A stretch of DNA of 64,000 nucleotides from an uncultured virus (IMG/VR IMGVR_UViG_3300009104_000011) (IMGVR_UViG_3300009104_000011); one strand, 5' to 3'; positions 2,776 through 57,228 are shown, numbered from the stretch's first letter. Made by a program: numbers and translations. The notes: generated by a model not told the origin, from the letters alone.

Positions 2776-2812
2776 AAAGCCGCAAGTGGAAAGTAACCTT
2801 TCTTTCCTATTA

Positions 2813-3016
2813 GGAAGAGTAACACAAACCTTGCTTGATTTTGTAAAGGTGGTTTGATCGACCATCAAGAGAAAATTTAAGGGGTTATGTGCTTAAAGTG
2901 ATGGGTTTCACACCTCATCGCTTGCAGGCTTCTCTTGACGAATGAGAATAAGGTGCCCTTCCCACACCGGAGGGCGATGCAAAGAGAAATGCTAACTCTT
3001 TGCACGCCTTCCACCA
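2813..3016 (+). ncRNA. Structured RNA unit (~204 nt) with terminal stem and 3' ACCA
   Basis: 5' GGAAG pairs with 3' CTTCC followed by ACCA|G; internal stems tcaagagaa/ttctcttga, tgcaaagag/ctctttgca, gccctt/agggc. Confidence 0.65.
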
Positions 3017-5689
3017 GATAGACATTATGGAATAAGAAGTACTAGTGATATTTGATACCGAGGTATATAACCAATGACGTTATGTTACCATCTAGTGTCG
3101 AATAGTCCACTTTCTAATTGAATAAATTCAAAAGAAAGTGTAAACACAGTAAACACACGAGATGAGAATTAGAAATGCACGGTTACCCTTACAGGGCAAC
3201 CTAAAACACAATTCACATCTAGTAAACACGCTCGTCAATCCTATGGATTGATCGACAACTCTAACACCAGATGGTAACATCGATAAAATATACTAATTTC
3301 CCTAGGCGCCCAGCCTAAGGGAGACTATGGCAACGGTAACCAAAGTGCTGACCAATTTAGCATACTGGATACCCATGGCCAGTGTTAAATTACGATGTTC
3401 TTTTTTGGTTCTATAAGGAGAGGTCCCAAGTAATACACGAGGGGCTCTTCGCGAACCAATAAAATCTGGTTAACAAAAATTTAGAATAAAACCCTGTGTC
3501 CAACAAGACCTGGGGTTGGAATGCATTAAATCGATAAAATAATACTAATCATTTGAATGAGTTCGTGGTGTTGTCCGACTACGTGTCCGACAACTAATCA
3601 CTTCTCAATATAAGCAAAATGAATTATCTTACCCTGGTAACATCAGGGAAGGTAGAAAACATTTGAAAGAACAAATAAGTTAGTTAAAACTGGGACGGAA
3701 CTCAGAAATTACGCTAAATAACACCATATTTATGATGAATATGTTTTGACAAGGCTGTGTGACAACAGTGCTCTAGACACATTAGAAATAAATAAACAAG
3801 GTCCAGTTGGTAAGTTCTCCCTTACCTCTTTTGAGGTAAGAGGAATAACAATCTCTACACAGTGGTGTGGAAGAATACTGGATACCGGTGATGGAAAGAA
3901 ATTGAAGTGGAAAATCTAGAGATGGTGGGTTACCGCCCACAACTCTCGGACGAACCCACATTCTTTACCACGGATAAACGTGGAAAAACCTGAACTGCAG
4001 ACGGTATACCCGGAAACATATGGTTTCTGAGATTATATAAACAAAACAAGAAAACAGTATGGTCAGCCCCTGGTAAAGGGTTAGATTATTCTGATAATGT
4101 AAATAATCTAAAACATAAGATTGCGGTCCTGAGGTGAGGAATTCGTAACCTATGCGGACCCTAATTAGCCACAAATACATTTGCAAAAAGACTTGGAAGA
4201 CACATCCCAAGTGACCCAGAGCATCTGGGAAAGTTGCAACAACTAACGAAATAAAATTTTACGTAACGTGCACGTAACGTGGAGCGGAAGATAAACTAAC
4301 ATCTAATGCCAGGTAAAAGACTTTGAACTTTAACTTGGAGGCGATGTCAGGAACGTCGACCTCCTCACACTGAGTGCGCAAAGATTTGCAAAAGAACATA
4401 CTAAGTTCTTATCTAAATTATACTTTAAAGAGAAAACAAAGAATTCTCTTACCGACGCGCGTCGTAGGTAAGAGCACCAAAAAACAAGAATACTTTGTAA
4501 AAGCATGTTGCTACATTATACACAGCAACAAATAAACCGTTTACCAACCTAGTAAAACTCCTCTAACGAGTTGAGACTAAGGAAACTTACACACTAATAG
4601 TAGAATTACCACACGTGACGAACGGTGGCTAACATTACTAGAGTGGACACACACACACTAAACAAAAACCTACAACTAACAAGGCTACAATATTAAGCCA
4701 AAGTAACCTGTCCAATATTAATGGAAAAAGAGTTACTAGTGTAGTTACTATGCGAGATAAAAAGACAACACAAAGGCAAATCGAACACAAACTCATAAAA
4801 AAGAGTGGACTGCGAGGCTGCCTAGACTTTTTGAACCAGGGTTACATTGCAAACGAAAACATTTAGTTTTTCGCCAGCAGTTACAAACTAATGGAGAACC
4901 AAAAGCACTCCAGAAGTGAAGAAGAGAAAAAGCAATGACAATGACGTCGACGAGAAGTCGAACAAAAAAGAGATACACTCTCAAAGATTTGCTAAGCACG
5001 CGGCACGGCCGCGGATACCATTGCTCTTCCCACTAAAACAAAACAAGAAAGTTTGACAGCAGGACGAAGTCGTCCTCCTCCTGGATACATACTATGTTTT
5101 CCGGGGACCCCTGAAATAGACTTTAGAAAAAACAACTAAAGAAAACAATCTTGCATGCCAGAAGAAGAGTGACTTACACGTCACAAAATTTCTGACATCA
5201 TATCAAAATTAATTGATTACATCATCTAATAGATGATTTACATCATACACATTGACATTGACAACTACAAAAAATGAAGACGGCTACCAAATAGAAAATG
5301 GTAGTCATGAAGACTTTCATTAAAGAAACTACAGTTATAGAAGAATGAATACATTGCCTGGTTAATTAAAGAAGAAAAAAGTAAAAAACACAGGTAGTAT
5401 GACAGCAGATTCGAGCCAATAAGGCTAGAACCATGAGAAGACCACCCATTTGGTGGTCTAATCTATATTTACCAAAAATAAAAAAATATGGAAGTGTAAG
5501 AGACATTGCACCTCCTTACGGGTAATGTAGAACTCGTGTAAACAAATTAGTGCGATACAAGACAGTAATCACTGATTAAATCACTGGCGATAGCAGAACG
5601 AACTACCCCTTAGATCTCTCTAATCGAGAGGTTTAGTAGGGAAGACTCGCGCGCTATCTTTAACCCCACTTCCCATAATGCTGTCACCA
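3017..5689 (+). ncRNA. Very large (~2.67 kb) structured RNA, K-turn family
   Basis: No + strand ORF of 60 aa or more; 5' GATAG-A-CATTATGG pairs with 3' CCATAATG-CTGTC followed by ACCA|G; K-turn at 3058-3079; dozens of hairpins joined by A-rich linkers. Confidence 0.7.
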
Positions 5690-5702
5690 GAGAGAGAAAA
5701 TT

Positions 5703-8141: not shown

Positions 8142-8948
8142 ATGGATAAGAAATTAAATATTGAACTAACAAAAGAGGACCTTGAAACTCTTGCTATGAT
8201 GATTCAAGACGGAAAAGTCACCTTGGAGATGTCGCTTTCAGCGAAAGCGATAGAACCAAAGGAAGACCCCGCTCTAATCAAGAGGCAAGAAGAGGAAGAG
8301 GCTCAAAAGTTAAGAGAGAAAGAAGTAGCAGCATATCTATTGCTGCCGGAGAATAAGTTTTGGATAAACTGTTCTTGGAACGAGTGCATGACGCACATGA
8401 CAGGAACCCGAAAAAGGGAAGACGACATTATACTTAGAAAGGGAAAGACTACGGTCGCCTTTGATGAGTTGAACGGCAAAAGCAAGACTAGCCATAAGGC
8501 CGGAAAGCCTTTGGGTAAGAGACAGATGAAACTGGTGAAAGCCTTTAGATCGGAATACGGAGTCTCTGAGAAAGAGATGAAGCAGACCAAGTACATCTAT
8601 GAGAAGGCTGACTTTGACAGTCAAGTCTTTACTCACTTGAAAGAAGCCGTGAATGAAGCAAAGACAAACGGACACAATTCGCTTGTCTATGATAAACTCA
8701 GCGATGCTGAGACAACTTCTGAAAAAATCGGTTCAAAATGGATTAATGCCATAGTAAATAAAATCGTGGATACTCAGGGCAAGCCCCTAGAATTCGATGA
8801 TGAACTACTATACAAAGAGGCAGACATAGTCGTACGTGACTATGTTGCCAAACAACGAGCCGGTCCAAATAAGGACTACTTTATCTCAATTGGTGAAGGA
8901 GTCATATACATCCTAAGTGATGCATATGACGAAATCATCGAAGGCTGA
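8142..8948 (+). CDS. Hypothetical protein
   Basis: 268 aa ORF after junction motif. Confidence 0.8.
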   Translation: MDKKLNIELTKEDLETLAMMIQDGKVTLEMSLSAKAIEPKEDPALIKRQEEEEAQKLREKEVAAYLLLPENKFWINCSWNECMTHMTGTRKREDDIILRKGKTTVAFDELNGKSKTSHKAGKPLGKRQMKLVKAFRSEYGVSEKEMKQTKYIYEKADFDSQVFTHLKEAVNEAKTNGHNSLVYDKLSDAETTSEKIGSKWINAIVNKIVDTQGKPLEFDDELLYKEADIVVRDYVAKQRAGPNKDYFISIGEGVIYILSDAYDEIIEG

Positions 8949-8978
8949 GTGCTTATTGCGCTCTATTAGGAGAGAAAT

Positions 8979-9893
8979 ATGAATAAAAAAGTATTTTCGA
9001 TAGCGCCTAGTTTCGACTGTAAGTTGAAATGCGAGGGATGCTATTTAACCACCGGAGTAACTCAAGATATGAGAGATCTAGTAAGATCAGATTCATACTT
9101 TACAAGGGCTATAGAAAGTGCCTCACGCGAAGGATATACCGAGTTTGCAATAACTTGGAATCCTTTTCCTGGAGCATTTCAAAAGACCAAACAATATGTA
9201 CTATATGCCAAGTCATTAGGCATGGAAACCAGTGTGACAACTGTCATGCAGTGTCTCCATGAGATGGACGAGGTCTTCATTAAGAACTTAGACATATTGA
9301 CCATATCTGTAGACGATATGCGATTCCAAAGTATGTATGAATTTCAGCAGATGAAATACGCTGCATTTCATGCACTTGAGTTAAGGTTCCACAATAACAA
9401 TGAAGAGACTGGTTTTAGTGACCACATATTCTTTAGGAGCCAATTTCCACACTTACAGATTAATTACAATCTGCTGTGGACTCCCGGTGTATTTGAGTGG
9501 CTGTACGAAGATACAGACACATTTAGAGATGCAATTGGAGAAATCCAGTATCCTGATACGATACAGCATCTCATATACAAGCCTCTTTCGATTTACGAAA
9601 GTGAAGAGTGGTTCTGGACTAATTACCAGCGAGTCTTTACTGACTTCGACTGGGTTAATATTGCAGGTAATGGACAAAAGTACATTGGCGATATCGCATT
9701 AAATAATCTCATGGGAGTGAATAACTGCCCTGGTCAAGATTATCAAATGGTTGATGTCGATCCGATGGGCTTTGCCAGACGCTGCCCAGAAAATCCAGAT
9801 GCTTACGATGTCTCTGACATTGGAAAATTATCTGGATTACTCAGAAACGGCACACCGTGCCAGAATAATGCTTGTAACTGCATCACAGGATGA
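8979..9893 (+). CDS. Radical SAM protein
   Basis: CxxxCxxC (CKLKCEGC), LTISVD motif, C-terminal Cys cluster (SPASM/twitch-like). Confidence 0.8.
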   Translation: MNKKVFSIAPSFDCKLKCEGCYLTTGVTQDMRDLVRSDSYFTRAIESASREGYTEFAITWNPFPGAFQKTKQYVLYAKSLGMETSVTTVMQCLHEMDEVFIKNLDILTISVDDMRFQSMYEFQQMKYAAFHALELRFHNNNEETGFSDHIFFRSQFPHLQINYNLLWTPGVFEWLYEDTDTFRDAIGEIQYPDTIQHLIYKPLSIYESEEWFWTNYQRVFTDFDWVNIAGNGQKYIGDIALNNLMGVNNCPGQDYQMVDVDPMGFARRCPENPDAYDVSDIGKLSGLLRNGTPCQNNACNCITG

Positions 9894-9901
9894 TGCTATT
9901 A

Positions 9902-10051
9902 GGGAGAGAGGAGTACTGTACCAAGTTTGTTGGTTTCTTGTTATATTGTCTCTTTGTTCGGCCTAACACGCCGATTTTCATCACAGAGGATCGCTTAAGT
10001 GCTAACGTATACTTGCACAGATAGCCGTCCTCCGGTACTCCCTCCCCACTA
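9902..10051 (+). ncRNA. Structured RNA unit (~150 nt)
   Basis: Terminal stem gggag..ggagtac/gtactcc.ctccc followed by ACTA|G. Confidence 0.65.
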
Positions 10052-10086
10052 GATGAGGAGAGAAGAGACAATAAAAACCAATACTA

Positions 10087-10443
10087 GGGAGAGTTAAACT
10101 GAGACGCAAGTCTATGAAATGACGGCCATCCACTTCGATTACAGTAAGTAACGATTCCGGCTCATACTTGAGCCCGAACGACGCTTGGGTCATCCGACCA
10201 CTGCGCTTTACCGCGCTGACAAGCAGCACGCCAGTAATCGCACGCCCTGGGTTCCCCAGCGCTAACACCGGAGAGCCGTCTCAGACCCATACATCGGGAC
10301 CTTGATCCTTATCATCGGTCCCTTGTCCACGCACACGGCAACAGATTAGGCTCGGCGCCTAATCGAACCTCAATACACCGTGTACTGGCGGTGGCTCGCA
10401 TTCGCGATCCACATGGGCCTGAGAAACTTAGAAACTCCCACTA
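10087..10443 (+). ncRNA. K-turn family RNA
   Basis: GGGAG/CTCCC terminal stem + ACTA; CTGA-GAC-GCAA-GTC-TAT-GA at 10099-10117; many GC-rich hairpins. Confidence 0.7.
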
Positions 10444-10903
10444 GGAAGAGAAAAACTGAGACGAAAGTCTATGACGAACCTCGGCATACATTCACGTAAT
10501 TTCCTCGGTCTATGCAGAAGTTATGGTAGCATTGATATCGTACAGCAATATCCAGGGACCCCCTTGGATATTCGTAGAAGTGCAAATCAATACTCCACAA
10601 CCATCTGTATAGCACAAGGAAGTTACTACAATGTTGCCTCGGCTCTACTCTGTGTTTTTACAATAGGTCAATAGAATCGACCACTCTAGTAACGAATAGG
10701 GCAGACTCCTTAAGGTCTGCAAAAGAGGGCTACGCCCCGACTCACTAGCGCATACGCGCAAGACAACCAAGGTTGTTTGGGGAGTCTACCCGTCTTCGAT
10801 TACTAGAGTCGGTCATTCTATGGCACCTAATGTACCACCTAGACAAACGGTGGATAACACAGCCGCGGAAACCCGCGAATCGTAGAGAACTAGTCTTCCA
10901 CTA
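10444..10903 (+). ncRNA. K-turn family RNA
   Basis: GGAAGA/TCTTCC + ACTA; CTGA-GAC-GAAA-GTC-TAT-GACG at 10456-10476; rod gaccactctagtaacgaa/ttcgattactagagtcggtc. Confidence 0.7.
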
Positions 10904-10911
10904 GATTACTA

Positions 10912-11474
10912 GGAAGAGAAAATAAAACTGAGATAACACAATGACGTTATGTCACCAAGCATCCTCGACGCAAGAAAGCCCGCGCTAGGCATACGCCCTA
11001 CGCGCTATAGGTTATTTGTGTCAACTGAGGATTATGGTGACATTATTTGATGATTACAACTGGCTACAATAATACCGCGATTGGTAAAATTTTGCGGGCT
11101 CTGAGGGCACCTTTCTAGCATGAAATTGCAAGGAAGGGATACGCGATTAGAACTTATGTAGACTGTAACACCATCAAAATCGGTTAAAGTGTCCGAACGA
11201 ACTATTGTAAATTTAATTCACAAGAAATAGATAACGACTAAGAAGACTCACACTACGTGTGATTTTCTTGTCACGAAATACATTTCGATGTTAAATTTGC
11301 AACACTTAGATTCGGACATATTCCACCGATTACGATGGTGTTACAGTAAACATAACTTTAATCACTACCATAGGAGATTACGTATTCACGAAATAACCTA
11401 TTAAAGTGAAGCAGTAGGCGTACCCACTCGGGCGGCGCCTCGCCTTGTAATTTCATGCTAAATTTCTTCCACTA
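10912..11474 (+). ncRNA. K-turn family RNA
   Basis: GGAAGA/TCTTCC + ACTA; CTGA...AATGACG at 10928-10946; long rods (ctgtaacaccatc/gatggtgttacag; tagcatgaaattgcaagg/ccttgtaatttcatgcta). Confidence 0.72.
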
Positions 11475-11818
11475 GGATGGGTTGGGAAACCGAAAACTAA
11501 ATGCGAATTTAATACCGAGATCGAAAGATCAATGACGTTCCGGTGACGTCCATCATACGGATCAGATAGATCCTCCTGATGGCTCATTGGGGAGTACTCC
11601 CCTGAGCATACATGAAGATACGAAATTCGAGCCGCCTTTGGCTAATCGAACGCAAATTGCTATTTCGTACTTCATAGACGCTCAACATTCGTCACCGGTG
11701 ACATTCTGGAACGATGCACATTCGCGCATCTACGAATCATAGATTCGATACCCTCACAACAGACTTTCTGTTGAGAGCGTCCCAGTATGTCACACCCACA
11801 TAGTTTTCCCATCCACTA
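11475..11818 (+). ncRNA. K-turn family RNA
   Basis: GGATGGG/CCCATCC + ACTA; CCGA-GATC-GAAA-GATC-AAT-GACG at 11515-11537; stem ccggtgacg/cgtcaccgg. Confidence 0.72.
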
Positions 11819-12371
11819 GAGAAGTTTTAACACTGAGGTCGAAAGACCAATGACGTTGCGTTGACAAAGATGCGCGCGTTTTCACCATAGAATATCTTCA
11901 CGCCTATAAGAGTGTGAAGCAAGTACCTTACGGTACGATAGACCTGATTACAGTCTAATAATCTATGGTAAAATCGTGCTCCTTCGTCAACGCATTGCAT
12001 GAATGAAGGTTCTAATTCATCATAATGAATAGCCTATTATCAATCTGAAAAACCTCGATTTTGAGGCCTAAACGAAGATTACATTCTGCAACGCGGCATG
12101 ATGACAGATGAGGCAAGCCATTCAGGTCTAAGGACCTTCTGACACGCCTAGGATTTCATAATTTCTATACAGAGCAATCATTCTCACTTAGAGGTGTAAG
12201 CGCATACGCGCAAAGAGAGTCACGTAAACGTTTGACTCTAGCCTTAAGAATGAAAACTCGTATAGCAAACAACGAATTCCTTCAAGACAAAACATAGAAC
12301 TTACACCTCCACGCAAGTGGATTTAAGGTGACGTTCACGTGTCATCATGCCGCAGATGTTACTTCTCAACA
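11819..12371 (+). ncRNA. K-turn family RNA
   Basis: GAGAAGT/ACTTCTC + AACA|GATG; CTGA-GGTC-GAAA-GACC-AAT-GACG at 11833-11855; stems gcgttgac/gtcaacgc, gcggcatgatgaca/tgtcatcatgccgc. Confidence 0.72.
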
Positions 12372-12372
12372 G

Positions 12373-12657
12373 ATGAGTGACAATACATCGATATTTGTAA
12401 GATACAACAAATTAAAAATGGGTTTTGAAGTCGTTCACGCATCATGGGATGCGCAAAACGATAACGAAATTTGGGAAGAAGCAGAAACATTCCAACAGGA
12501 ATGTGCTGCTTTGAAATATGCGGTACAGAAGCACCTGAGTCTTAGGACTAGTGGTGTCTCACCAGAATATGGTATAACACCGCTGTATAATCCTAAAAAC
12601 CTACTACCAAGAGAGCAAAAGACTCTCAATGATTGGTATGAGGAGAAGATACTATGA
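12373..12657 (+). CDS. Hypothetical protein (start revised to MSDNTS)
   Basis: In-frame ATG directly after AACA|G junction. Confidence 0.7.
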   Translation: MSDNTSIFVRYNKLKMGFEVVHASWDAQNDNEIWEEAETFQQECAALKYAVQKHLSLRTSGVSPEYGITPLYNPKNLLPREQKTLNDWYEEKIL

Positions 12658-12848
12658 GTACACAAGAAATTGAACTCGGCCCAAATGAACAAAGAAGAAA
12701 CCGCTTCCAAGATAATTTGTTGGAAGATAGGCACGAAGAAATCGTTGCCTTACTTAAAGAGATTAGAGACGCAATTAACGTCTTCAAAGAATTTATTCTT
12801 GAGGTTACACCTCAGGATGCTAAAGACGACATTGAAGACCTACGTTGA
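12654..12848 (+). CDS. Small acidic hypothetical protein
   Basis: ATGA overlap with upstream gene, GAGGAG SD. Confidence 0.65.
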   Translation: MSTQEIELGPNEQRRNRFQDNLLEDRHEEIVALLKEIRDAINVFKEFILEVTPQDAKDDIEDLR

Positions 12849-12865
12849 AAATAATCTCCTATTAG

Positions 12866-14413
12866 ATGAGAACAATAAATATAATTAACCATAGAAAAGA
12901 AGACACCTTAGCAGCCCGCCCTATTACTCTTGTAAGAGAAGGAAGCGGGGAAAAGGAAATTTATGGAAAAGTTATGGCTATGTTTTTGAAACAAGGTATC
13001 ATGATTGAACGCATGTATTTGCAAGTTAAAGGCAAAGACTTAGCGATTTCAATACTTGGACTAAATGGTAATGTCCTATACTTAGAACTGCACAATTTTA
13101 TTGATGACACCACAGAGTTGCCCTACAAAGGAGATTTTCTTCTTGAGGGGAAATCTGATGGTCCAGCGATTCAGCACATAACTAAAACAGTTGATGCGCT
13201 AAATACTGGAAACAATCAAACTGTGCTAACTTTAGTTAGCCCGCGTGTCCGCGGTGGAAGATATGGAAACATGACTCTAAACGGACAAGGTGTATCAAAC
13301 TACGCTACTGGAGACCTCTTTGTAAACGCAGGGATATCTAGTCTGACAATTCCAATTATTTGGAGTCCTAACAAAGGTAGTTTGATGAACATAAAGGGCT
13401 TAGTAACACATACCGGGAGCAATCAGTCAAATAGTAGCCACAGACGAACATCTGGTGCGCTAACTCAATATTTGAGAAGACTGAAAACCCCAGCAGAAAT
13501 ACCAATAATGTTTCACATAGAACAGTCTGGAAATAACTACGGAACTGGAACAGTTCCCGCAGTTAATCTGATCTGTACACATAACAAGAGTATTGTTAAA
13601 ACGAGTTTACCAAGTAACCTAGATATAGGTAACTTGGCCTTTCTATATCAACTACCAAGAGGAACTATTGGTTCTATAATTGGTAAGGGAAATAAAAAGA
13701 GGCCATTCGGTGAACTTCTTGTTTGCTATGATACTATCCGCTCTGTCGGAGGCGACAAATTAAATGTCGTTTGTAGAACAGTAAACACATCTGTTTCGGA
13801 CGGAACAAAAGAAGATACAACAGTAGAAACCAAGAACCTTGATGACCAAGGTGAGTTGATCTACGAGAATACTAATTTACAAGGTGTATCTTCAATAAGT
13901 TACTCTACTTGGTTTGACATGGTTCAGACCGCAAGAAGTGGCACGCTATCTTTCTCGACATTTACAAATGTCATGGAAGGTGATGTGACGGAGTTATTTG
14001 GCGTTACCAATAATGGAGATATAGTCTATGGTTTGAAAAACAATCAAATGACTGTAATTACAACTATTTCGACATTGGGAAGAGCAATGCAGTTTGAATC
14101 AAAACTGCTAGAGATTCTCCCAGATACCGTTAAAAGGCGAACCAAGAAGGTCGTTAAAACGTATGATGATAAGTTGGTCCAAGCATTGGAAGAAAGAGCA
14201 GAAAAGCCCAGATTACTAAAGCGGCTTAACACGCTCATCGCTAAATTAAATCAAAGTGACTATTACAAGAAATGGAAGGCAGTTTCTGACGCAGAATGCG
14301 AGAGACTAGACCAACCAAAGGAATACGAACTAGAACAAGTATTTCTAATCTACTTGAAAACCACAGAAACAGTAACAATGAAAGACATTGAAGAGTTCAA
14401 CAAACTTAAATGA
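12866..14413 (+). CDS. Hypothetical protein (515 aa)
   Basis: Long ORF starting at ATTA|GATG. Confidence 0.8.
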   Translation: MRTINIINHRKEDTLAARPITLVREGSGEKEIYGKVMAMFLKQGIMIERMYLQVKGKDLAISILGLNGNVLYLELHNFIDDTTELPYKGDFLLEGKSDGPAIQHITKTVDALNTGNNQTVLTLVSPRVRGGRYGNMTLNGQGVSNYATGDLFVNAGISSLTIPIIWSPNKGSLMNIKGLVTHTGSNQSNSSHRRTSGALTQYLRRLKTPAEIPIMFHIEQSGNNYGTGTVPAVNLICTHNKSIVKTSLPSNLDIGNLAFLYQLPRGTIGSIIGKGNKKRPFGELLVCYDTIRSVGGDKLNVVCRTVNTSVSDGTKEDTTVETKNLDDQGELIYENTNLQGVSSISYSTWFDMVQTARSGTLSFSTFTNVMEGDVTELFGVTNNGDIVYGLKNNQMTVITTISTLGRAMQFESKLLEILPDTVKRRTKKVVKTYDDKLVQALEERAEKPRLLKRLNTLIAKLNQSDYYKKWKAVSDAECERLDQPKEYELEQVFLIYLKTTETVTMKDIEEFNKLK

Positions 14414-19863: not shown

Positions 19864-19971
19864 GGAGAGTCAGGCTTCGGCCTGAGTGAACGGCAAACTG
19901 GGTTTAAACTGCGAACAAGCATGACGGATTTATCCGTCCATCACACGCCTCAGCAATCCGGCTCTCCACTA
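19864..19971 (+). ncRNA. Small structured RNA unit (108 nt)
   Basis: GGAGAGT/GCTCTCC terminal stem + ACTA|GATG; tcagg-c(UUCG)g-cctga hairpin; gacgga/tccgtc hairpin. Confidence 0.7.
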
Positions 19972-22852: not shown

Positions 22853-22933
22853 GGAGAGTTGTGCAATCAAGGAAAACGTACAAGTTGCACGAAAAAACTG
22901 ATATTACAAAAACATATATCAGTCTCTCTAACA
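22853..22933 (+). ncRNA. Small structured RNA unit (81 nt)
   Basis: GGAGAG/CTCTCT + AACA|GATG; internal stems gtgcaa/ttgcac, actgatat/atatcagt. Confidence 0.6.
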
Positions 22934-24577: not shown

Positions 24578-25338
24578 GAGAGTATACAATCTGAGGTCGA
24601 AAGACCAATGACGTAAGCCGAAAATTAAGCAAACTTGTTTGCAACGATTGAGACTATGCTGCGCAAAGACGCTGCGCTTCTCAATTTGCTGCACTCGTTC
24701 ACTTAACGGCTCATCCTACGGACAAGCACTTCAGAGTCACAACTCTGAAGCATTACCCTAACATCCCTACCACCTTGCGGCTCCGCTGCGGTGCTAACGG
24801 GAGGTAACGGGCACGCAAAGAGTAGATTGCGCAGCGCGCGATCTACTCGGTGCTAATCCTACGGAACAACATCTCAAAAACGAGAACGATTAAGTTTCGC
24901 CTTTGCTGGTTAACGCTGCGCGTGTGACCTGCGGTCACAAACCAACTGCGACGAAATGCACTGCGTTACTTAATCAACGGATCGAAGATCCTCGTTCTAC
25001 GTTTTGTTGCATGTTTGAGCCTATTTATCGCCTACACAACCAGACCTACGGTCATAGACTTGGCAGCCCAAGCGCTGCAGACTCATGGTTGTGAAAGGCT
25101 TCGGCTCCTCGGAACACTGCGGCTTTTAAGTCGCAAACTGATGACCTTGCGCCAACGGACTGCGCTATTTCATACTAAAATGAAATTTGCTACGCAATCG
25201 CTAGTCCTGCGAGTCAATCAACCACGAACGCCTCTACGAGGCTTGCTCATTTCACGAGCACATTATTGATTGGCCCTCGCGGCTTGGCTCAACCGGTTCA
25301 TCGCCAAGTTCCTCGGAAACTTAATCTTACTCTCACTA
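24578..25338 (+). ncRNA. K-turn family RNA (~760 nt)
   Basis: GAGAGTA/TACTCTC + ACTA; CTGA-GGTC-GAAA-GACC-AAT-GACG at 24591-24613 (identical to 11833 copy); many hairpins (cttcagagt/actctgaag, gagtagat/atctactc). Confidence 0.72.
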
Positions 25339-25783: not shown

Positions 25784-26439
25784 GAGAGTTCTTACACTGA
25801 GGCCACAAGCCTATGACGTTTAAGTAACCACGTCTAAAGAACCGCATTAGGTTCTGAGACGCTACGCTATCCGACCTACATAAACAACCGTTCTAAAGTC
25901 CATCGCGGAAATCCGCGAAAGGTATTGGCAAATGAATTACCAATACAGTTGCATTCGCAACGCCGGAGAACGACTTTTGTGGGCAATTGCCCAGTCGTCC
26001 TTGTCCGGTCGAGTGATGGAAAAGAACGATGTTCAGGTAGATAGTACTGCGCATAAAGCGCAAGCAGACGAACATTGGTCAATAAATTGACCGCCGTTCG
26101 GAAACGGCTCTGCAGAGCATTAGATTTGCAACAGCATTACGACAATGGTAGTGCCACGAGGAACAATAGGAGCAGAAAGAATTTGACAATCAAAGATTGA
26201 GCGTGATTCCACGCTTGTCTAAATCAACCGGCCTACGGCCACAGGTTGATTCTTAACGACTCAAATTAATACTGGTCCATAATGTTCCACAGGCACCCTC
26301 CTCTGTCGTAACACTTGTAACGCACGTTAGATAAAGCAGCATTAGACTGCATTATAGTGAAGCGAATCAGATGATTCCAATAGGATGGGACCAAGTTCCC
26401 ATCTTAGCAGAGAAACTTAAAAACTAGATCTCTCAACTA
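25784..26439 (+). ncRNA. K-turn family RNA (~656 nt)
   Basis: GAGAG/CTCTC + (A)ACTA; CTGA-GGC-cacaa-GCC-TAT-GACG at 25797-25818; hairpins ggtcaat/attgacc, gccgtt/aacggc. Confidence 0.68.
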
Positions 26440-26721: not shown

Positions 26722-27108
26722 GGAGAGATAATTAAACCGAGGTGAAAGCCTATGACGTACTCTTGCTAAAGTACACAGACATTCACAGACGAACATAAAG
26801 TGAAACGCAGATGTGGTGCATGCGCACCTTATCGCGAGATTAGCGATTATAACCTTCTGTGCAAATCTGGGTATTTATCAAGAGGTATCCGATCGCATGC
26901 GAGTGTGACGGTATCACTTCAAAACAAAAAGAACGCATATGCGTTTGCTTCTAATTCTTATGGGAGTTTTACACACAAGCGAAGGGCAACTAATAGGCTA
27001 TGCATTTAGTAAAGCCGTAGCCCACTCGCTGGTGTAAAGCCCCATATCATATTAGTTTAACAGTGCAGTAAACTGCATTTGTTTTGAAAATTAGTTTACT
27101 CTCCACTA
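26722..27108 (+). ncRNA. K-turn family RNA (~387 nt)
   Basis: GGAGAG/CTCTCC + ACTA|GATG; CCGA-GGT-GAAA-GCC-TAT-GACG at 26737-26757; stem gcgagtg/cactcgc. Confidence 0.72.
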
Positions 27109-38244: not shown

Positions 38245-38439
38245 ATGAGTGAAGAAATTATCCGCTGCAATGAATGCGGTAAAAAAGACTTAGACGAAGT
38301 TATAGAATGTTCCGAATGTGGGATGTTCTGCATTTCGTGCTATGACAAAAATGCGAATAAATGGGTGATACTAAATCATCCTAATCACTGTCGGGACCTA
38401 TGTCCCGAACACGCGCATTTGGTAAAAGCCTCCGAGTGA
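38245..38439 (+). CDS. Small Cys-rich Zn-finger protein
   Basis: CNECG, CSECG, CISC, CPEH. Confidence 0.7.
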   Translation: MSEEIIRCNECGKKDLDEVIECSECGMFCISCYDKNANKWVILNHPNHCRDLCPEHAHLVKASE

Positions 38440-38448
38440 GGCTATTAG

Positions 38449-38733
38449 ATGAGCAATAAATGCCCACACTATGATGAGTATGATTACGATACCTTACATG
38501 ATCCTGAATTTTTGCACCACCCTGCCCATGATTGGGTTGTGGAGATGCTAGATGATGCTCCGAAGGCGTACATCAGGGGAGATACAGGTGAGAAGTATCT
38601 CAGTCTAAGCATGAGGTTAAGATGTACCAAATGTGGTGCAACTTATGACACGAGCACTTTTGTAAACAAGGAAACAGGAATGACACAGTTCTCCCTTTTC
38701 TGCAAAAGACAACTAATCAAAGCCTTTGAGTGA
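38449..38733 (+). CDS. Hypothetical protein
   Basis: ORF between repeats; CTKCG. Confidence 0.7.
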   Translation: MSNKCPHYDEYDYDTLHDPEFLHHPAHDWVVEMLDDAPKAYIRGDTGEKYLSLSMRLRCTKCGATYDTSTFVNKETGMTQFSLFCKRQLIKAFE

Positions 38734-38742
38734 GGCTATTAG

Positions 38743-38886
38743 ATGAGTAACGAAAGTGAAATTGAGGCGGCTTACAAAGCCGGAGCCCACAGAATTATCA
38801 ACTTAAATTTGATGAGCCCCAACATAAAAGACAAATTGGTTGAAGTACTTTGGCTAGAATACCGCTTTAACAAAGCCTCCGAGTGA
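38743..38886 (+). CDS. Micro protein (47 aa, MSNESEIE...KASE)
   Basis: Fills the interval between two repeats exactly. Confidence 0.6.
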   Translation: MSNESEIEAAYKAGAHRIINLNLMSPNIKDKLVEVLWLEYRFNKASE

Positions 38887-38895
38887 GGCTATTAG

Positions 38896-39003
38896 ATGGC
38901 GATAAAGAAAGACTACAAGTATTTCATGAAAAAACATTTCAGCGTGAGGGCCATCGGTCTGATTGCTTTAGTGATTTTTACACATGAACTACTACATTTG
39001 TAA
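38896..39003 (+). CDS. Micro membrane protein (35 aa)
   Basis: ATG at junction; hydrophobic segment. Confidence 0.5.
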   Translation: MAIKKDYKYFMKKHFSVRAIGLIALVIFTHELLHL

Positions 39004-39026
39004 AGCCTTCTGAGCGAGGCTATTAG

Positions 39027-39515
39027 ATGAGTAACGAAAGTGAAAATAAAAGAATTGATTTAACTCAGTTTGAAGGTAAGGGGATAGTTCCGTTAATGGT
39101 TCTACCCAATACCTACACGATAGCACAGGATAACAATAGAATCTATGAAGACTACAATTATCCCGATGACGATGAAAATCGCTACGGGTGGATTGTGGGA
39201 AACATTGATTCTCATTATGAGTCCGATGACCCCGAATACGGGGTTGTGCAAAGTGAAAGGCAGGAAGTAATGGCGAAACTTTTCGCCATGGCTCCTGACC
39301 TAATTGCTGAGTTAAACAGAATGTACAAAAGAGAAGATGAACTTATGGAGATACTGTCTGTCCTTGAAGATAGACACGATATTGACATGGGTCAATTTGA
39401 TTCCGAAGAAACACACCGGAGGTCGTTAAGACAGGACTTCGGACAAGGAACTGGAGAATTAGAATCCACCCTTGGTGACGGACAACCTGAATGGACTTCC
39501 GGACCAAATATGTGA
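39027..39515 (+). CDS. Phage hypothetical protein
   Basis: AKLFAMAPDLIAEL resembles the common phage NARLIAAAPDLL motif. Confidence 0.7.
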   Translation: MSNESENKRIDLTQFEGKGIVPLMVLPNTYTIAQDNNRIYEDYNYPDDDENRYGWIVGNIDSHYESDDPEYGVVQSERQEVMAKLFAMAPDLIAELNRMYKREDELMEILSVLEDRHDIDMGQFDSEETHRRSLRQDFGQGTGELESTLGDGQPEWTSGPNM

Positions 39516-39538
39516 ACGCCTCCTAGTGAGGCAATTAG

Positions 39539-40054
39539 ATGAGTAACGAAAGTGAAAACACAGGACTGCTTTCTACAGAGGAAGCAGTAGAGAAATACGA
39601 TGGTGAGGAAACGACATCGACCGAGAACGAAATGAGGCAAGACCTCGGAGAGTTTCGTACTGACCACCTAAAGGCGGTTATAAACGGAAGAATCGTTGAG
39701 GTTGATGGAATCCTGACCGACAAGGCATACCAAGAGTTCTTGGTGCTTTGGAACGAAAACCATGACAACAACTATGGGGAAACGTGGAACACAAAATATG
39801 CTTGTGCGGACCACATGAGAACACACGCTGCTAGATACGGCTTTAGTGATGTTGACGACGACGAAGGACACTTCGGATGGGGTCACACCACTGAAAAATC
39901 GAGTAAGCCGTTGGCAGATTTGCCTGTGCTTTTCCCTAGACTGGTTGTCCTAGTTTCTGCGTCTGACTTGTTGCACCGATGTGCAACTGATAAGCAACGC
40001 ATGGAACAATTCTACGAAAGCCGTGGGCAAACAGCCCCATGGAACGCCTCCTAG
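39539..40054 (+). CDS. Hypothetical protein
   Basis: ORF between repeats. Confidence 0.7.
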   Translation: MSNESENTGLLSTEEAVEKYDGEETTSTENEMRQDLGEFRTDHLKAVINGRIVEVDGILTDKAYQEFLVLWNENHDNNYGETWNTKYACADHMRTHAARYGFSDVDDDEGHFGWGHTTEKSSKPLADLPVLFPRLVVLVSASDLLHRCATDKQRMEQFYESRGQTAPWNAS

Positions 40055-40067
40055 TGAGGCATATTAG

Positions 40068-40199
40068 ATGAATGGAGAACAAATCGACAAATGGTCAGAA
40101 AAGCACGTTGGAAGCCTAGCATTAACGAGAACCCTAGTAGGGTTTCTTAATGTGGCCTTGAGTACCTTAGTGGTATTCAAATTATTCGACGTGATATAA
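40068..40199 (+). CDS. Micro membrane protein (43 aa)
   Basis: ATG at junction; C-terminal hydrophobic helix. Confidence 0.6.
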   Translation: MNGEQIDKWSEKHVGSLALTRTLVGFLNVALSTLVVFKLFDVI

Positions 40200-40210
40200 C
40201 GACCTATTAG

Positions 40211-40522
40211 ATGGTAAAAATATGTGTGCTTTGCGGCACAGAAATTGAAGGTCATGGCAACAACCCTGCTCCCTTAAATCAGGGACATGGTAGATGTTGT
40301 GATGGCTGTAATACCGATTTAGTGATTCCCATGCGAATATATGGGAGTCGCTTTGATGTGCAGTTAATGCAAACGCAGCAACTAGAAGTGCTTTGGACAG
40401 ATATGATGCGCAAGCGTCGGAAAGCCCAAAGTAAGACGAAGTATGTTCCGGGTATGTCCTTGGAGGACGTCCTGGAATTGCAAAGGCGGATAGAAGAGAA
40501 CAACTATTCACCGCAGAACTGA
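40211..40522 (+). CDS. Zn-finger phage protein
   Basis: CVLCG..IEGHGNNPAP...RCCDGCN. Confidence 0.7.
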   Translation: MVKICVLCGTEIEGHGNNPAPLNQGHGRCCDGCNTDLVIPMRIYGSRFDVQLMQTQQLEVLWTDMMRKRRKAQSKTKYVPGMSLEDVLELQRRIEENNYSPQN

Positions 40523-40550
40523 CGGTATATTAGAAACGGTGGCATCGAAG

Positions 40551-40586
40551 ATGAGGAGGGTTAGAAAGCCCTCCTCATTTTTTTTT
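40551..40586 (+). terminator. Terminator closing the + strand array
   Basis: atgaggaggg/ccctcctcat hairpin plus T-run at the convergence with priS. Confidence 0.75.
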
Positions 40587-41670
40587 ACCACTTTTTCTTA
40601 CACTCTGTCGTCAAGGCCACTAGTGCTTCATAGCGCTTCATTTTGTGTTGTCCTGCTGGAATTATCTTCTTTATTGGGAAGTCAATCTCAACGTCCTCGG
40701 CTAGTTCAACAGTTACTTCGTCTTCACCAGCGACTTCCATTATCTCATCTAGTATCAGTTCTGTACTATCAAGGTGATATCTTGTTAATCGGACACAAGG
40801 CAAACCACTCTTTGGATGCAAAGAACCCGGTATTCTAAACAATCTATTAGAGTCTACCGTAGGTTTTCTATCAAAGACGTCCTTGATTGTTATCCTGTGT
40901 TCCTTCATCATACCAGAAATGAGTACCTTCTTATCGAAATCCTTTAGGCTTCCTGTTTTCAACCTGGCAATTACGTCTGGGTCTGAGAATAGGGAGCCTA
41001 ATTTTTTTACATATTTTTTGGCAAAGTACTTCTCGATGTTCTCTTTAGACGGATTCGCAACCAGTTTACTGATGAAATGCATCATTTGGGAACTCCAACC
41101 ATACTTAGTTAGGTTCTCTGTAGGTAATAGACTACTCCTATCTAACTTATTGCCCATTATGTAATCGACAACCTGTCTTCTACTCGACACATCTAGGTCT
41201 CTAAACGCTTTTGATTCAAATGTCAAATGAAATCCCTTCTTGCCAGAGAAATCTATCTGCATCGATTCTAGAGGAAACCCGAGATCTACGAGAAATCTAT
41301 CGACTACAGCCTTGGTTTTCTCTCTCATAGCACCAATGAATTCTATTCTGTTCTCGTAATCGGCGTCATCTTCATCTAGATCGATAACAAAATCGAAACC
41401 AATTAAGTCTCGCTTCTTCTTGTCTATCTCGTTTGGGTCTAAATAGGTGGCTGTTCCGGCGAATAGCCCTGCTGGCGGTCTATTTTGTGTCAGTCTTTCA
41501 CGCAATTCTCCCTCGTTCTTGAACACTAGATTCCTTTTCCAGCCTTTTAGTTCGGGACTGAACACATTCAACCCCCACTCGCGTCGAGGTACGTTATCTA
41601 AATGTAAATCTGTATTCTGATAATGTTCTCGATACAGTGCAAATACACCCTCTTTTCCACGGTAAATCAC
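40585..41670 (-). CDS. priS: DNA primase small subunit
   Basis: RREWG, FDFVIDLD, FSGKKGFH, RLFRIPGSLHPKSG. Confidence 0.9.
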   Translation of the reverse strand: MIYRGKEGVFALYREHYQNTDLHLDNVPRREWGLNVFSPELKGWKRNLVFKNEGELRERLTQNRPPAGLFAGTATYLDPNEIDKKKRDLIGFDFVIDLDEDDADYENRIEFIGAMREKTKAVVDRFLVDLGFPLESMQIDFSGKKGFHLTFESKAFRDLDVSSRRQVVDYIMGNKLDRSSLLPTENLTKYGWSSQMMHFISKLVANPSKENIEKYFAKKYVKKLGSLFSDPDVIARLKTGSLKDFDKKVLISGMMKEHRITIKDVFDRKPTVDSNRLFRIPGSLHPKSGLPCVRLTRYHLDSTELILDEIMEVAGEDEVTVELAEDVEIDFPIKKIIPAGQHKMKRYEALVALTTECKKKW

Positions 41671-42071
41671 TAGAAACCACCTTCACTCTTGCCACCCATA
41701 GTCTTTAATGGTGTAATAATCGAACTGGCCATGTCAGAAGTTAATGTTTCGTCCCACGTTGAGATATCGGGAACGTCTTGCATTGGCACTTCTAACGTAT
41801 GTGCTAGAAAGTCTAACGCCATTCTCTCGTCTTCTCCAAATACTGTATTCATTAAGTCTCTAGCATATTTAATTTGAAAAGGCGTTGCTTGACCAGGGTC
41901 TACGTCAAAGTGGGTAGACTTTGGTCCAGAAGATGTTGTGATAATTGGTGTAATCGGCACTTTACTCTTCTCAACACTCATCTCAAAATCTTCAAACTTA
42001 ATCTTTACCTTCGTTATTCCACTCATGCCGTCAATCTCTTTCAAGATTTTAACTATCTCCGCTCTCTTCAT
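41670..42071 (-). CDS. Hypothetical protein (start revised to MKRAEI)
   Basis: ATG abuts MCM stop; ATPFQIKY motif. Confidence 0.7.
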   Translation of the reverse strand: MKRAEIVKILKEIDGMSGITKVKIKFEDFEMSVEKSKVPITPIITTSSGPKSTHFDVDPGQATPFQIKYARDLMNTVFGEDERMALDFLAHTLEVPMQDVPDISTWDETLTSDMASSIITPLKTMGGKSEGGF

Positions 42072-42072
42072 A

Positions 42073-44496
42073 TTACCACACCTGCCATGCTGGGTTCTTA
42101 GTTCCATCGTATGTGTAAGTTCCGTTGCGAGAACGGTGTATGTTTGTCGTCCTCTTGTCTCTAGCAAATTGCTTCATAACAATCTCTATTACATCCATAC
42201 TCGGAATATCTGACCAAGCCTTCTTCATCTCTGTGTAAATCTCCTCAAATGACCTATCGTCGAGCATGAAGTCGTCATTTATTAGGTTGCAAAACCTTTC
42301 TGCCACCATAAATCTCAATTCTCTATCACCTTTACTTAGGCCTCCCTCTATAACCCCAGGATCTTGTTCCTGTAGAGTGGAGGCCATTATTTTTTCAGCA
42401 AATTTTACGTGCTTTAGAGTGGCCGTCTTCACCCCATCAAACTTTGCAGCAGCAAGAGTTAGTCTAGAAACCGCTGCGATTTGCCTATGCGACCTCAATT
42501 CTTCATCAGTATCTGCTTGGGTTCGCTTCTTAACGTGCTGCTTAATGATATACTCTGCTGCTTTCTTGGATAGTTTTGCTTCGCGGTTCTTACAAACCTC
42601 CAATAGTTTCTTCACAAACTCCAAATCGATGGCAATATCTGCTATTTCTGCTACGTCATCTTCTTGTGCGGTTAATCCCTTCAAGACAGCATGACCTATT
42701 GCTGTGTCAATTTCTTTATTTGCTGAGTCTAGTATCACAAAGATGCAATCAAATCTAGACCAGAGAGCCAAGTCCATATCTATCTGTTCAAATAATGGCC
42801 TCATCCTGTCGAACTTCTTACGCTTAGACCCCTTACCATCCGGATTTGCACCTGCTACAATCGCACAGTGAACGGGGATTGTCGCTTTAACTACCTTGTT
42901 TACATTGACCTCTCCGGATTCTAAAGCCCTATTCAATTCACCATAGTCTCCTTTGTAAAGATTGAACTCGTCAATAGCACAAATTGCACCTTTTGGAGTG
43001 AGTGGTATCGCTCCGGGTTCTACAACCCAACGCTTCTTGTTGGAATATAGGTCTTCTTTTTGTATGCACGCGGCAGTTAAACCGGGTCCGGTCGAAATAC
43101 TAGCATCGGTTATTCTACTACCGGGTGATAGTTTTATGACAGCCTCCATAATCTTGGTCTTAGCAGTTCCAGGATCGCCTATTAGCATGACGTGAAAGTT
43201 GGGTCTAATCCCAAATTGTTTATTTTCGACAGCACCAACTGTGGCAAGAACGAGGGCTTTCTTTATCTCGTCATGACCATGGATATGCCCAGCATAAGAC
43301 TTTGTCACCAAATCCATCTTCTCTTCCAAGTCTACAGACTCCTCAAAGAGAGCAATTTGTTCCAAATCATTCTGCGTCAATGTCATTGTAGTCAAAGAGT
43401 GTGACTTTTCTTCTACGTGCGAGGCTAGAATGTAATGGTCACAAATTAAACCATTTTTGGTCGTTGGCTCCAAACGCATAGTGCCTACAACCGATATTGA
43501 CGAGCCTGCCTCTATTGACTCACAAAGTTCGCCTCTTAACTCAACCATTATCGAACGAGATTCTGCCGAAACCTCCTCTTCTTGGACAGAAATCCTTTGG
43601 ATTGCTTCATTTTTCGTCTCCTCGCTCTCTAAACGAACATACTTCTTACCTTCGCATATTTTACACGCTCCGGGTTTAGTTAATTCTCCTCGCTCTACAT
43701 CTTGCTCTACTAAATTGATGTGTCCGCACTCAACACCAAAAGCATTCGGGTGTACACATCTGAATGCAATATGGGTCATTACTGTCTTCACATCACCCTT
43801 CTCGATGACTTGACCATCGATCTTAACGACTCGACCTACGTCTCCTGCCTTCGATAGTGCCTCAAAATCTCTATTACAATACTCTGGTGGATTCATAAAC
43901 CGCCATTCGGGTTTGATTTTGTGGTACTTGGACCGTTGTTCCAATCTCGGGTCTGCTATATTCAAAAATTCCATCTCAAATCTTTGTAGCCAGAAAGTTA
44001 TACTCTTTGGTGAGGTGATTAGGTGTGTGTCTAATTTATTGTAATAGTCACGGAATTCCTTGTATGTCTTGAATTCAATACCTGCTGACATCAGTATTGG
44101 TGGTGTTTCGATACTCATGCCGTTAGGTTTCTTCTGTGGTAGGATTACCCCACTACCTATTGCTTCTATATCTATGAAACAAACTGGTACATTTGGCTTA
44201 TCACTGAGTTCAATCTGGTTTCGCATCGAAGACATGGCGTTTATTCTTTGTTGTGTTACTGGAAAACCTAGATTTTCTAGTCTACCCGCAGCCGCCTTAG
44301 CATTGTCGTCTATAATGTTGGCTCTGATTTTGGAATCAGTAGATTTATCTGAACTATACACATAACCAGATTGCCACATCAAGTATGCAACAACTGACCG
44401 CCTTCTTTCCTTATCTTCTTCATCAATCGCATGAAGTATTTGGTCTATCTCCAGTATGTCGTCTGCTTCCTCTATATCGTATTCCATCTCAATCAC
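42073..44496 (-). CDS. mcm: MCM replicative helicase
   Basis: Zn finger, OB fold, Walker A GDPGTAKT, GLTAA, Walker B IDEF, SRFD arginine finger. Confidence 0.95.
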   Translation of the reverse strand: MIEMEYDIEEADDILEIDQILHAIDEEDKERRRSVVAYLMWQSGYVYSSDKSTDSKIRANIIDDNAKAAAGRLENLGFPVTQQRINAMSSMRNQIELSDKPNVPVCFIDIEAIGSGVILPQKKPNGMSIETPPILMSAGIEFKTYKEFRDYYNKLDTHLITSPKSITFWLQRFEMEFLNIADPRLEQRSKYHKIKPEWRFMNPPEYCNRDFEALSKAGDVGRVVKIDGQVIEKGDVKTVMTHIAFRCVHPNAFGVECGHINLVEQDVERGELTKPGACKICEGKKYVRLESEETKNEAIQRISVQEEEVSAESRSIMVELRGELCESIEAGSSISVVGTMRLEPTTKNGLICDHYILASHVEEKSHSLTTMTLTQNDLEQIALFEESVDLEEKMDLVTKSYAGHIHGHDEIKKALVLATVGAVENKQFGIRPNFHVMLIGDPGTAKTKIMEAVIKLSPGSRITDASISTGPGLTAACIQKEDLYSNKKRWVVEPGAIPLTPKGAICAIDEFNLYKGDYGELNRALESGEVNVNKVVKATIPVHCAIVAGANPDGKGSKRKKFDRMRPLFEQIDMDLALWSRFDCIFVILDSANKEIDTAIGHAVLKGLTAQEDDVAEIADIAIDLEFVKKLLEVCKNREAKLSKKAAEYIIKQHVKKRTQADTDEELRSHRQIAAVSRLTLAAAKFDGVKTATLKHVKFAEKIMASTLQEQDPGVIEGGLSKGDRELRFMVAERFCNLINDDFMLDDRSFEEIYTEMKKAWSDIPSMDVIEIVMKQFARDKRTTNIHRSRNGTYTYDGTKNPAWQVW

Positions 44497-45145: not shown

Positions 45146-45168
45146 CATGGGATGAAGTGCAACGGTCG

Positions 45169-47502: not shown

Positions 47503-47730
47503 GTGATACCGCTGCTATTGGGACTTGAGGAATCGATAGCCACTAAGAAGGCTCGACAATTACTTTCCGATGGAGGAATTAGATACAAATACAAAGATAT
47601 CCTAAGCACAGACTCCAGTATAGGTGGGATGATGGTAGCAATTACAGGTTCGACTGTTGTGCCTCAATTGTTCGTCGGGGGTGATAGTTATGTCGGTGAA
47701 GAACAAGTCCGCAGATATCTTAGGAATTAA
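47503..47730 (+). CDS. Glutaredoxin-fold protein lacking CxxC
   Basis: TGSTVVPQLFVGG cis-Pro motif; no cysteine. Confidence 0.6.
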   Translation: MIPLLLGLEESIATKKARQLLSDGGIRYKYKDILSTDSSIGGMMVAITGSTVVPQLFVGGDSYVGEEQVRRYLRN

Positions 47731-52991: not shown

Positions 52992-52993
52992 TT

Positions 52994-53509: not shown

Positions 53510-53511
53510 AC

Positions 53512-55107: not shown

Positions 55108-55118
55108 GGGTGATTTAG

Positions 55119-56284: not shown

Positions 56285-56357
56285 CGAATTGAAACCACAA
56301 TTACTGAGTAATGAAGATTGTGAAAGGCGTTAAAGTCAAGCACCCTGTCCGAAGACC

Positions 56358-57056: not shown

Positions 57057-57060
57057 TTAG

Positions 57061-57219: not shown

Positions 57220-57228
57220 ATGAGATGA

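Follow-up and report, generated by a model that had tools for sequence, protein, structure and literature searches.

An array of abutting, stem-closed RNAs and a region-wide junction signal in a probable virus of marine Thermoplasmatota

Structured RNAs of phages, such as T4 species 1 and 2, P4 CI and P1 c4, are encoded in tRNA clusters or processed by RNase P. Long transcripts can also be divided at structures that lie between genes, as in mitochondrial tRNA punctuation and in the processing of T7 early RNA by RNase III. To our knowledge, archaeal viruses have provided hardly any examples of large structured RNAs. Two reports describe stem-loop TIGR arrays in archaeal viruses, made of abutting stem-closed units that contain two 8-12 nt spacers each and have a Tas gene adjacent (PMC12045711; bioRxiv 10.64898/2026.09.09.750476). 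The latter leaves it undecided whether such units are processed or have separate promoters (bioRxiv 10.64898/2026.09.09.750476).

Here we analysed an array of abutting RNAs in 64 kb of DNA from an uncultured virus (IMGVR_UViG_3300009104_000011; this whole stretch is called the window). The window encodes MCM, TFIIB, two PriS primases, ligase, RNase H, ribonucleotide reductase and a Ycf46-like AAA ATPase, and its proteins gave no capsid or terminase match. The TFIIB shares 51% identity with copies from four marine euryarchaeal genomes, of which two are labelled Poseidoniales, and 44% with a Woesearchaeota copy; relatives of the AAA protein are numerous on marine contigs of up to 234 kb. A complete virus record of 140,336 bp with terminal repeats, G007, is matched by 19 window ORF queries in similar order. 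Based on this gene content, the relatives of TFIIB and of the AAA protein, and the synteny with G007, the element is most probably a large virus infecting marine Thermoplasmatota, both its host and its viral nature being deduced from sequence. Single-protein scans of the viral contig collection found no close relative of the window. DNA-pattern searches for the array returned either no match or 27 matches in coding DNA that were judged to be chance, and blastn against annotated phages gave nothing meaningful. For comparison within the clade, 80 loci were chosen by their AAA protein (46-93% identity). The region 52614-63460 of the window encodes transglutaminase-like and membrane-anchored proteins in common with G007, again with no capsid match.

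The array closes a module of conserved order: DUF1257-like gene, DUF2997-like gene, RNA, AAA gene, 7468-like gene, RNA, radical SAM gene, RNA array, with the RNAs in fixed slots. The names DUF1257-like and DUF2997-like are presumptive, in part taken from the G007 homologue. The conserved 7468 protein, considered as a candidate TasA, gave a model of pLDDT 84.7 with no Foldseek match (best Z 4.4). The radical SAM-type gene, which has its own TATTA/G junction at 8969 (the slash marks the junction), is the conserved upstream neighbour of the array and is present in 58 of the 80 related loci.

We found that the array consists of six large stem-closed RNAs (U1 to U6) and two mini-units, without spacers (Table 1). 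A sequence-only reading had proposed six stem-closed units of about 150, 357, 460, 563, 344 and 553 nt with only a 35-nt and an 8-nt mini-unit in between, and these coordinates proved exact. In the MFE fold of each large unit the 5' end pairs with its own 3' end and a 4-nt tail is left over; the z-scores range from -5.6 to -14.0 (25 dinucleotide shuffles per unit). The seven internal junctions all read ACTA/G, as had been stated for the array, and the outer two read ATTA/G (first) and AACA/G (last). The array makes up 3.9% of the window and holds 10 of its 77 copies of ACTAG and five of its 10 copies of CCACTAG. The ACTAG copies at 10744, 10802 and 10889 lie inside units, not at junctions.

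Table 1. Features of the window and of the distant relative G007.
Feature	Coordinates	Strand	Details
Additional family member (5' end with K-turn)	3045..3080	+	in 2.9-kb non-coding stretch preceding the AAA ATPase gene; K-turn at 3058
Radical SAM-type protein gene (CxxxCxxC)	8979..9893	+	ESM Atlas score 0.97 to Radical_SAM clusters
U1, 150 nt, stem-closed	9902..10051	+	long terminal stem; ACUA tail; no K-turn; z -6.2
U1 loop, U/G-rich	9922..9956	+	near-invariant among relatives while other parts of U1 diverge
Mini-unit, 35 nt, purine-rich	10052..10086	+	complementary to U1 loop
U2, 357 nt, K-turn RNA	10087..10443	+	K-turn 10099-10119; arms ~10121-10280 and ~10281-10422; AUUC hairpin 10396-10407; z -5.6
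U3, 460 nt, K-turn RNA	10444..10903	+	K-turn 10456-10476; AUAC hairpin 10748-10759; z -10.2
Mini-unit, 8 nt	10904..10911	+	flanked by two junction signals; retained with substitutions in L047 and L125
U4, 563 nt	10912..11474	+	K-loop-like motif 10928-10946; AUAC hairpin 10988-10997; z -11.4
U5, 344 nt, K-turn RNA	11475..11818	+	K-turn 11515-11537; z -10.6
U6, 553 nt, K-turn RNA	11819..12371	+	K-turn 11833-11855; AUAC hairpin 12200-12211; AACA tail; z -14.0
Last junction, AACA/G-ATG	12368..12375	+	start of a 94-aa gene with almost no leader; its place behind the array is conserved (synteny)
Further K-turn RNA of the family, 761 nt	24578..25338	+
Further K-turn RNA of the family, 656 nt	25784..26439	+
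Further K-turn RNA of the family, 387 nt	26722..27108	+
Host-like TFIIB	45157-46104
Divergent cyclin-fold protein beside TFIIB	47657-48589		weak ORC6 match
Nop/IS110-C-terminal-like protein, 345 aa (G007)	L136:12046-13080		PDB 9MTY at E 1e-4
Fused Rpo1/Rpb1-type RNA polymerase large subunit (G007)	G007:C1 about 38532-43544 (L135-L136)	-	~1,650 residues; catalytic aspartates intact
28-nt repeat ending TATAAT, three copies (G007)	G007:C1 46463, 47800, 55553		before purine-rich stem-closed RNA

Five units carry the K-turn that had been claimed for them, in the form CYGA-hairpin-NRU-GA(C/A)(G/A), with a C-stem, a 3-nt bulge, tandem G.A/A.G pairs and an NC-stem pair; in U4 the C-stem is a single pair, giving a K-loop-like motif. 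By established rules these K-turns are putative L7Ae sites. L7Ae-family proteins are encoded by four candidate host genomes, and G007 gave no L7Ae match. A recurring hairpin with a UACG loop had also been placed at about 10748, 10987 and 12199. Its stems are real (10748, 10988 and 12200, with a variant at 10396), but the C-G-closed loop is AUAC or AUUC instead of UACG. U3 was rejected as a coding sequence, as its 67-codon ORF shrinks to 46 and 20 codons in orthologues.

U1, with orthologues in 11 related loci, is an RNA of a different kind from the K-turn units. The duplex between its loop and the 35-nt mini-unit has a predicted energy of -18 to -29 kcal/mol in 12 of the 12 loci carrying the motif, and this pairing ends a helix 3-4 nt upstream of the 10087 junction.

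The folds are supported by covariation. Orthologues of all six units occur in the related locus L047 (79-94% identity) and of five units in L125. In MFE-paired columns compared with these orthologues, two-sided changes kept the pair in 94 cases and broke it in 31, one-sided changes kept it in 46 and broke it in 134, and 1044 pairs were unchanged. For U5, nine orthologues were aligned, and 19 of the 40 consensus pairs were changed on both sides, a number reached by none of 500 shuffles, the consensus structure being derived from the same alignment as used for this test. In this consensus 93.5% of cells are paired, compared with 34-47% in slid controls, and the K-turn boxes are fixed while the C-stem pairs covary.

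Furthermore, the units belong to a clade-wide family of 58 non-redundant RNAs of 174-1019 nt, each with an acceptor-like stem, a K-turn arm and usually two large arms (two in 34 RNAs, three in 12 and one in 12, when folded with the terminal stem and K-turn constrained). The K-turn module has seven strict sites in the window besides the U2 and U4 variants, occurs in most related loci and nearly always lies 9-25 nt 3' of a junction G. In the near clade the first arm begins 2-5 nt past the K-turn and abuts the second, and it measures about 155-165 nt in the U2, U3 and U5 types. The strict form of the recurring hairpin folds as a hairpin in 15 of the 58 members. Because these 58 RNAs were pre-filtered on five A-starting tails and terminal pairing, discriminator and acceptor-pair counts from them are circular, and tail frequencies were taken from 86 automatically delimited units instead (ACCA in 34, ACTA in 24). 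U6, which ends in AACA in the window, has an ACCA or AUCA tail in more distant relatives. The number and order of K-turn units vary among relatives, with three to five behind the radical SAM gene, and a U3-like RNA precedes that gene in L048, L115 and L059. The family is real, conserved and unclassified.

Other structured RNAs were seen outside the array. The 2.9-kb non-coding stretch in the DUF2997-like/AAA module (2776-5700), conserved only partly in L047, contains a 203-nt unit (2813-3016) ending in a stem and ACCA, as well as A-rich segments. A stem-closed RNA of about 115 nt lies at 456-575 and is present in two or three copies in several relatives (L048:1326 and 1883; L063, L069, L055). 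Short stem-closed RNAs of 50-120 nt with the same ends and no K-turn occur at 19864-19971 and 22853-22933 of the window, and before the radical SAM gene in L077-L105.

To place the family, we compared it with known classes. Rfam release 15 at the gathering score found only tRNA in the window and five related loci, and its E-value mode added only long-hairpin miRNA noise far below the cut-off. Box C/D sRNAs were rejected, as neither a 5' box C (RUGAUGA) nor a 3' box D (CUGA) was found in any of the 58 RNAs. In none of them does the putative guide stretch upstream of D or D' match any of four marine euryarchaeal rRNAs over 10 nt or more (the host itself being uncertain), and the mean equals that of shuffles; the U1 loop likewise is no more complementary to rRNA than shuffles are. 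H/ACA RNAs do not fit, since the K-turn branches off a multiloop as a side arm, the tails are ACCA or ACUA, and the best H/ACA Rfam match has an E-value of 6.6. The family has a tRNA-like acceptor stem and an NCCA-type tail, although the window's own units end in ACUA or AACA, not CCA. tRNA and tmRNA were rejected because a T-loop motif occurs in 2/58 and a G3.U70 pair in 1/58, and ARAGORN found none in the array. A CRISPR array was dismissed because its longest repeats (40-46 nt at 80-85%) are confined to the surroundings of the K-turn. MITE/IS5 elements were rejected, since exact inverted repeats are absent from the ends and the signal occurs genome-wide; as integron attC sites the hairpins are too short and an inverse core is absent. 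N4-type DNA hairpin promoters were rejected for the array because its stems span 150-560 nt.

The junction is not specific to the array: a helix followed by a short ...YA/G tail is region-wide punctuation. By manual reading, the junction lies on the ATG or within about 20 nt of it at 37 of the 40 plus-strand ORFs listed between 882 and 40211, and clearly at none of the 22 ORFs beyond 40.6 kb. Across the clade, AG directly precedes 303 of 897 first ATGs, with the logo A-4 Y-3 T-2 A-1 G+1. The helix usually stops 4-5 nt short of the junction G. Among 15 tRNAs, four end in ACCA or AUCA directly on the signal. Pairing probability peaks at -9 to -6 (0.63-0.70 for 67 near-clade starts, 0.49-0.56 for 207 distant ones, 0.32-0.39 when shuffled) and drops at -5/-4. 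Strict hairpins precede 21% of the 303 AG/ATG starts (16/31 in the window) and 4.5% of 1500 internal controls. ACTAG is not depleted in coding DNA (22 observed, 21 expected), nor are the junction pentamers on either strand, and the clade start logo has no TATA signal at -25 to -30; therefore the motif alone cannot specify a start. In the window, 38430-39560 contains a hairpin-junction-start cassette in five near-identical repeats, three genes sharing their first six codons, which is a sign of gene shuffling through the junction sequence. We found no description of the junction signal or of these RNAs in the literature searched, most subscription papers lying outside the search, and the accessible text of PMC11706807 mentions neither non-coding RNA nor promoters.

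To look for RNA ends, we compared metatranscriptome contigs (four runs, three samples, two studies; contigs only) with positions 8500-13600. The left ends of 4 of the 24 listed internal pieces fall on junction Gs, where chance placement on 11 junction Gs in 5101 nt gives p of about 2e-7. These starts are at 8969 and 10087 (run X6), 11819 (runs X9 and X6) and 12372 (X9). Three of the four begin with three unmatched letters, as would be expected from template switching. All four come from one sample, which X6 and X9 share, and none of eight starts from the second study lies on a junction. None of the 25 listed of 39 pieces bridges a junction, and contigs say nothing on precursors or levels. Cover is thin or missing for U1 and most of U3 and U4, and expression of the array only, suggested by the X6 share, was rejected because protein genes are covered too. 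The contigs thus hint that discrete RNAs begin at junction Gs; by their nature they neither formally show ends nor tell a cut from a start. In one X6 contig the match stops at 12371, where U6 ends, and 88 unlike letters follow, the start of which matches none of 125 loci; a chimera, a ligation or a strain variant are candidate explanations.

We propose that the early region of the element would be transcribed as long RNAs and cut at a helix followed by a short single-stranded ...YA tail and a G, which would free leaderless or short-leader mRNAs, tRNAs and large RNAs alike. In the array the helix would be the terminal 5'-3' stem of each unit, and a single cut would generate both the 3' terminus of a unit and the 5' terminus of its successor; the 35-nt mini-unit may provide the missing helix through its pairing with the U1 loop. 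We lean slightly towards such processing of a long precursor as the origin of the RNAs. Cutting is favoured because the spacing from helix to G is fixed over stems of very different reach: the geometry is alike for local hairpins, cassettes with 36-nt loops, terminal stems of 150-1000 nt and a real tRNA (L113:4525-4601) with both ends on the junction signal. It is also favoured by the CCA-like tails after large RNAs and by strand-specific wobble in G007, where the junction stems have 17 G-U on the sense strand and 5 on the template strand. In G007, 30 of 37 starts, compared with 33% of controls, have a stem of at least 4 pairs that stops exactly 3 nt short of the G; the tail is a strict 3 nt there and 4-5 nt in the window clade. 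Promoter information is lacking at the junctions, and cutting is further supported because G007 has a separate promoter-like repeat of 28 nt in only three copies (Table 1), a candidate for a true early promoter apart from the junction signal. RNase P could account for the 5' ends of units that begin with a stem, but not for a G-AUG start like the one at 12372.

The sequence-only reading had also favoured one precursor, arguing that abutting units leave no room for promoters. This argument is insufficient, because a signal of a few nucleotides precedes most protein genes and follows terminators, and G007 encodes an Rpb1-type subunit. What stands is the separate release of the units, for which processing is the likelier route, and initiation at a minimal element is compatible with the data. 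The chief alternative to cutting, less probable and still a serious contender, is separate transcription, with W-Y-Y-A/G as a minimal initiator for a polymerase with viral subunits (Rpb1-type, TFB), possibly re-initiating after a stop at the upstream helix; 3' ends would be trimmed to the stem and the RNAs would otherwise be the same. Junctions directly follow conserved terminator-like elements of a hairpin and U6-10, without an adjacent stem, in about 14 loci (hairpins judged by eye), which speaks against cutting, as do stem-less junctions: no stem belongs to the second of the two junctions flanking the 8-nt mini-unit, tRNAs that lack an A discriminator (G73) carry the signal 4-9 nt past CCA, and 83 junctions of the window clade lack a 5-bp local stem at the fixed place. 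The G starts are purine-rich, and at 12927 an RNA contig begins behind CTATTA, where there is neither a stem nor a G. The wobble test is flat in the window clade (30 vs 28), which together with the single-sample origin of the junction starts also weakens the case for cutting. Terminator-like elements in the window lie at 2035-2095, the head of the DUF1257-like module (kept in about 14 loci), and at 40555-40586, the end of the 40-kb plus-strand run.

A polymerase of this kind has candidate parts. The Rpb1-type subunit of G007 retains the catalytic motif, and its relatives (1560-1690 aa) form a family on marine contigs of up to 143 kb; no Rpb2 match was found in the G007 genome. The TFB and the cyclin-fold protein of the window are possible viral transcription factors. 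The evidence for the polymerase gene, however, comes from the distant relative G007, and separate transcription leaves several observations aside: an upstream sequence signal is absent, the motif is not avoided inside genes, AACA/G, ACCA/G and TATTA/G have little in common beyond A..AG, and the stem distance is fixed even for very long-range stems.

Returning to cutting, the released RNAs would be giant cloverleaves, with a tRNA-acceptor-like stem, an A-C-Y-A tail, two or three large arms and a K-turn arm that would bind the L7Ae of the host. They may act as stable decoy or scaffold RNPs while the host is taken over, by engaging L7Ae together with proteins that recognise tRNA ends. Such a role is favoured because only shape elements are conserved, the paralogues expand and diverge fast, and they are located among early genes; taken alone, the decoy role is a tentative suggestion that may well be wrong. 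The whole explanation, from cut punctuation to tRNA-ended, L7Ae-bound decoy or scaffold RNAs, has in our view an even chance of being correct.

G007 also contains a dispersed TIGR-like system. By a strict pattern we found at least 25 cassettes of 45-52 nt (e.g., L138:9342-9434, L137:7423-7514, L136:13471-13609), in each of which a covarying 5-bp stem encloses two random segments of 8-9 nt. They are located ahead of early genes and have the helix and YA/G junction. A search for paired targets of the spacers in G007, the window and eight host loci found none. The four supplement text files of PMC12045711 do not mention the G007 record, and the bioRxiv TIGRFinder tables may list its cassettes. 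We consider it unlikely that one undescribed punctuation, served by a viral nuclease or polymerase subunit, mints mRNAs, tRNAs, TIGR-type guides and L7Ae-binding, tRNA-ended RNAs, with the large RNAs being K-turn descendants of viral guides and thus intermediates between TIGR guides and box C/D RNPs.

It is also improbable that the large RNAs serve a Nop-domain RNP as guides or scaffolds and are elaborated relatives of the TIGR-like guides of G007, with the same punctuation and the K-turn as a D'/C'-like box. The order CUGA-hairpin-NRUGA does equal the internal D'/C' motif, and the syntenic region of G007 joins the Nop/IS110-C-terminal-like protein to the two-spacer cassettes. Yet box C or a terminal box D is present in 0/58, the boxes are fixed without a variable spacer between them, and the stretch before CYGA matches rRNA at shuffle level (6.9 vs 7.1 nt). 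A homologue of the G007 protein, or another Nop-domain Tas gene, was found in neither the 64 kb of the window nor the 80 clade loci, and none of the best 120 of its 2523 homologues lies on a contig of a size known from the near clade (a weak test). The analogy with guide-RNA arrays drawn in the sequence-only reading fails on similar grounds: the units are divergent paralogues of 150-560 nt without a repeat-spacer pattern, and TIGR-Tas units were rejected as the clade loci have no regular short two-spacer cassettes. That the RNAs are junction-cutting ribozymes or selfish cassettes spreading between junctions is very improbable, for although unit number and order vary and the RNAs interrupt a conserved gene module, the same junction occurs without an adjacent large RNA, known ribozyme models are all without match, no reverse transcriptase or transposase is present among the 55 window proteins scanned, and the divergence is too great for recent copying.

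The array thus represents a family of at least 58 divergent RNAs with a common architecture in a widespread marine clade, which appears to borrow two recognition codes of the host, the K-turn and the tRNA end. The junction rule would point either to a new RNA-processing activity or to a TATA-less mode of archaeal viral transcription.

Compared with T4 species 1 and 2, P4 CI and P1 c4, the RNAs are likewise virus-encoded, with paired ends and CCA-like tails, and would likewise be cut from polycistronic precursors. They differ in their size (150-1000 nt), K-turns, many divergent paralogues and archaeal host, and in a signal that also opens leaderless mRNAs. The use of structure between genes as a division mark resembles mitochondrial tRNA punctuation and the T7 RNase III sites, whereas the junction has neither a T-arm nor a long RNase III-type duplex, and the proposed cut would fall after a 3-6 nt ...YA tail instead of at the discriminator. 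With the internal D'/C' K-turn or K-loop of archaeal box C/D sRNAs the array shares CUGA, a short hairpin, a 3-nt bulge and tandem GA; it lacks terminal C/D boxes and rRNA guides, has C instead of U at 3b, and its RNAs are 3-20 times longer. ROOL, GOLLD and OLE-like classes are similar in being several hundred nt long, highly structured and virus-borne, while the array RNAs match no Rfam family at any threshold and have other ends and the K-turn module. The window units resemble those of stem-loop TIGR arrays in abutting and being stem-closed, and differ in having neither two spacers nor a Tas gene alongside; the G007 cassettes do have two spacers. G007 links the junction rule to TIGR-like guides, for which the current literature has yet to settle how stem-loop arrays mature.
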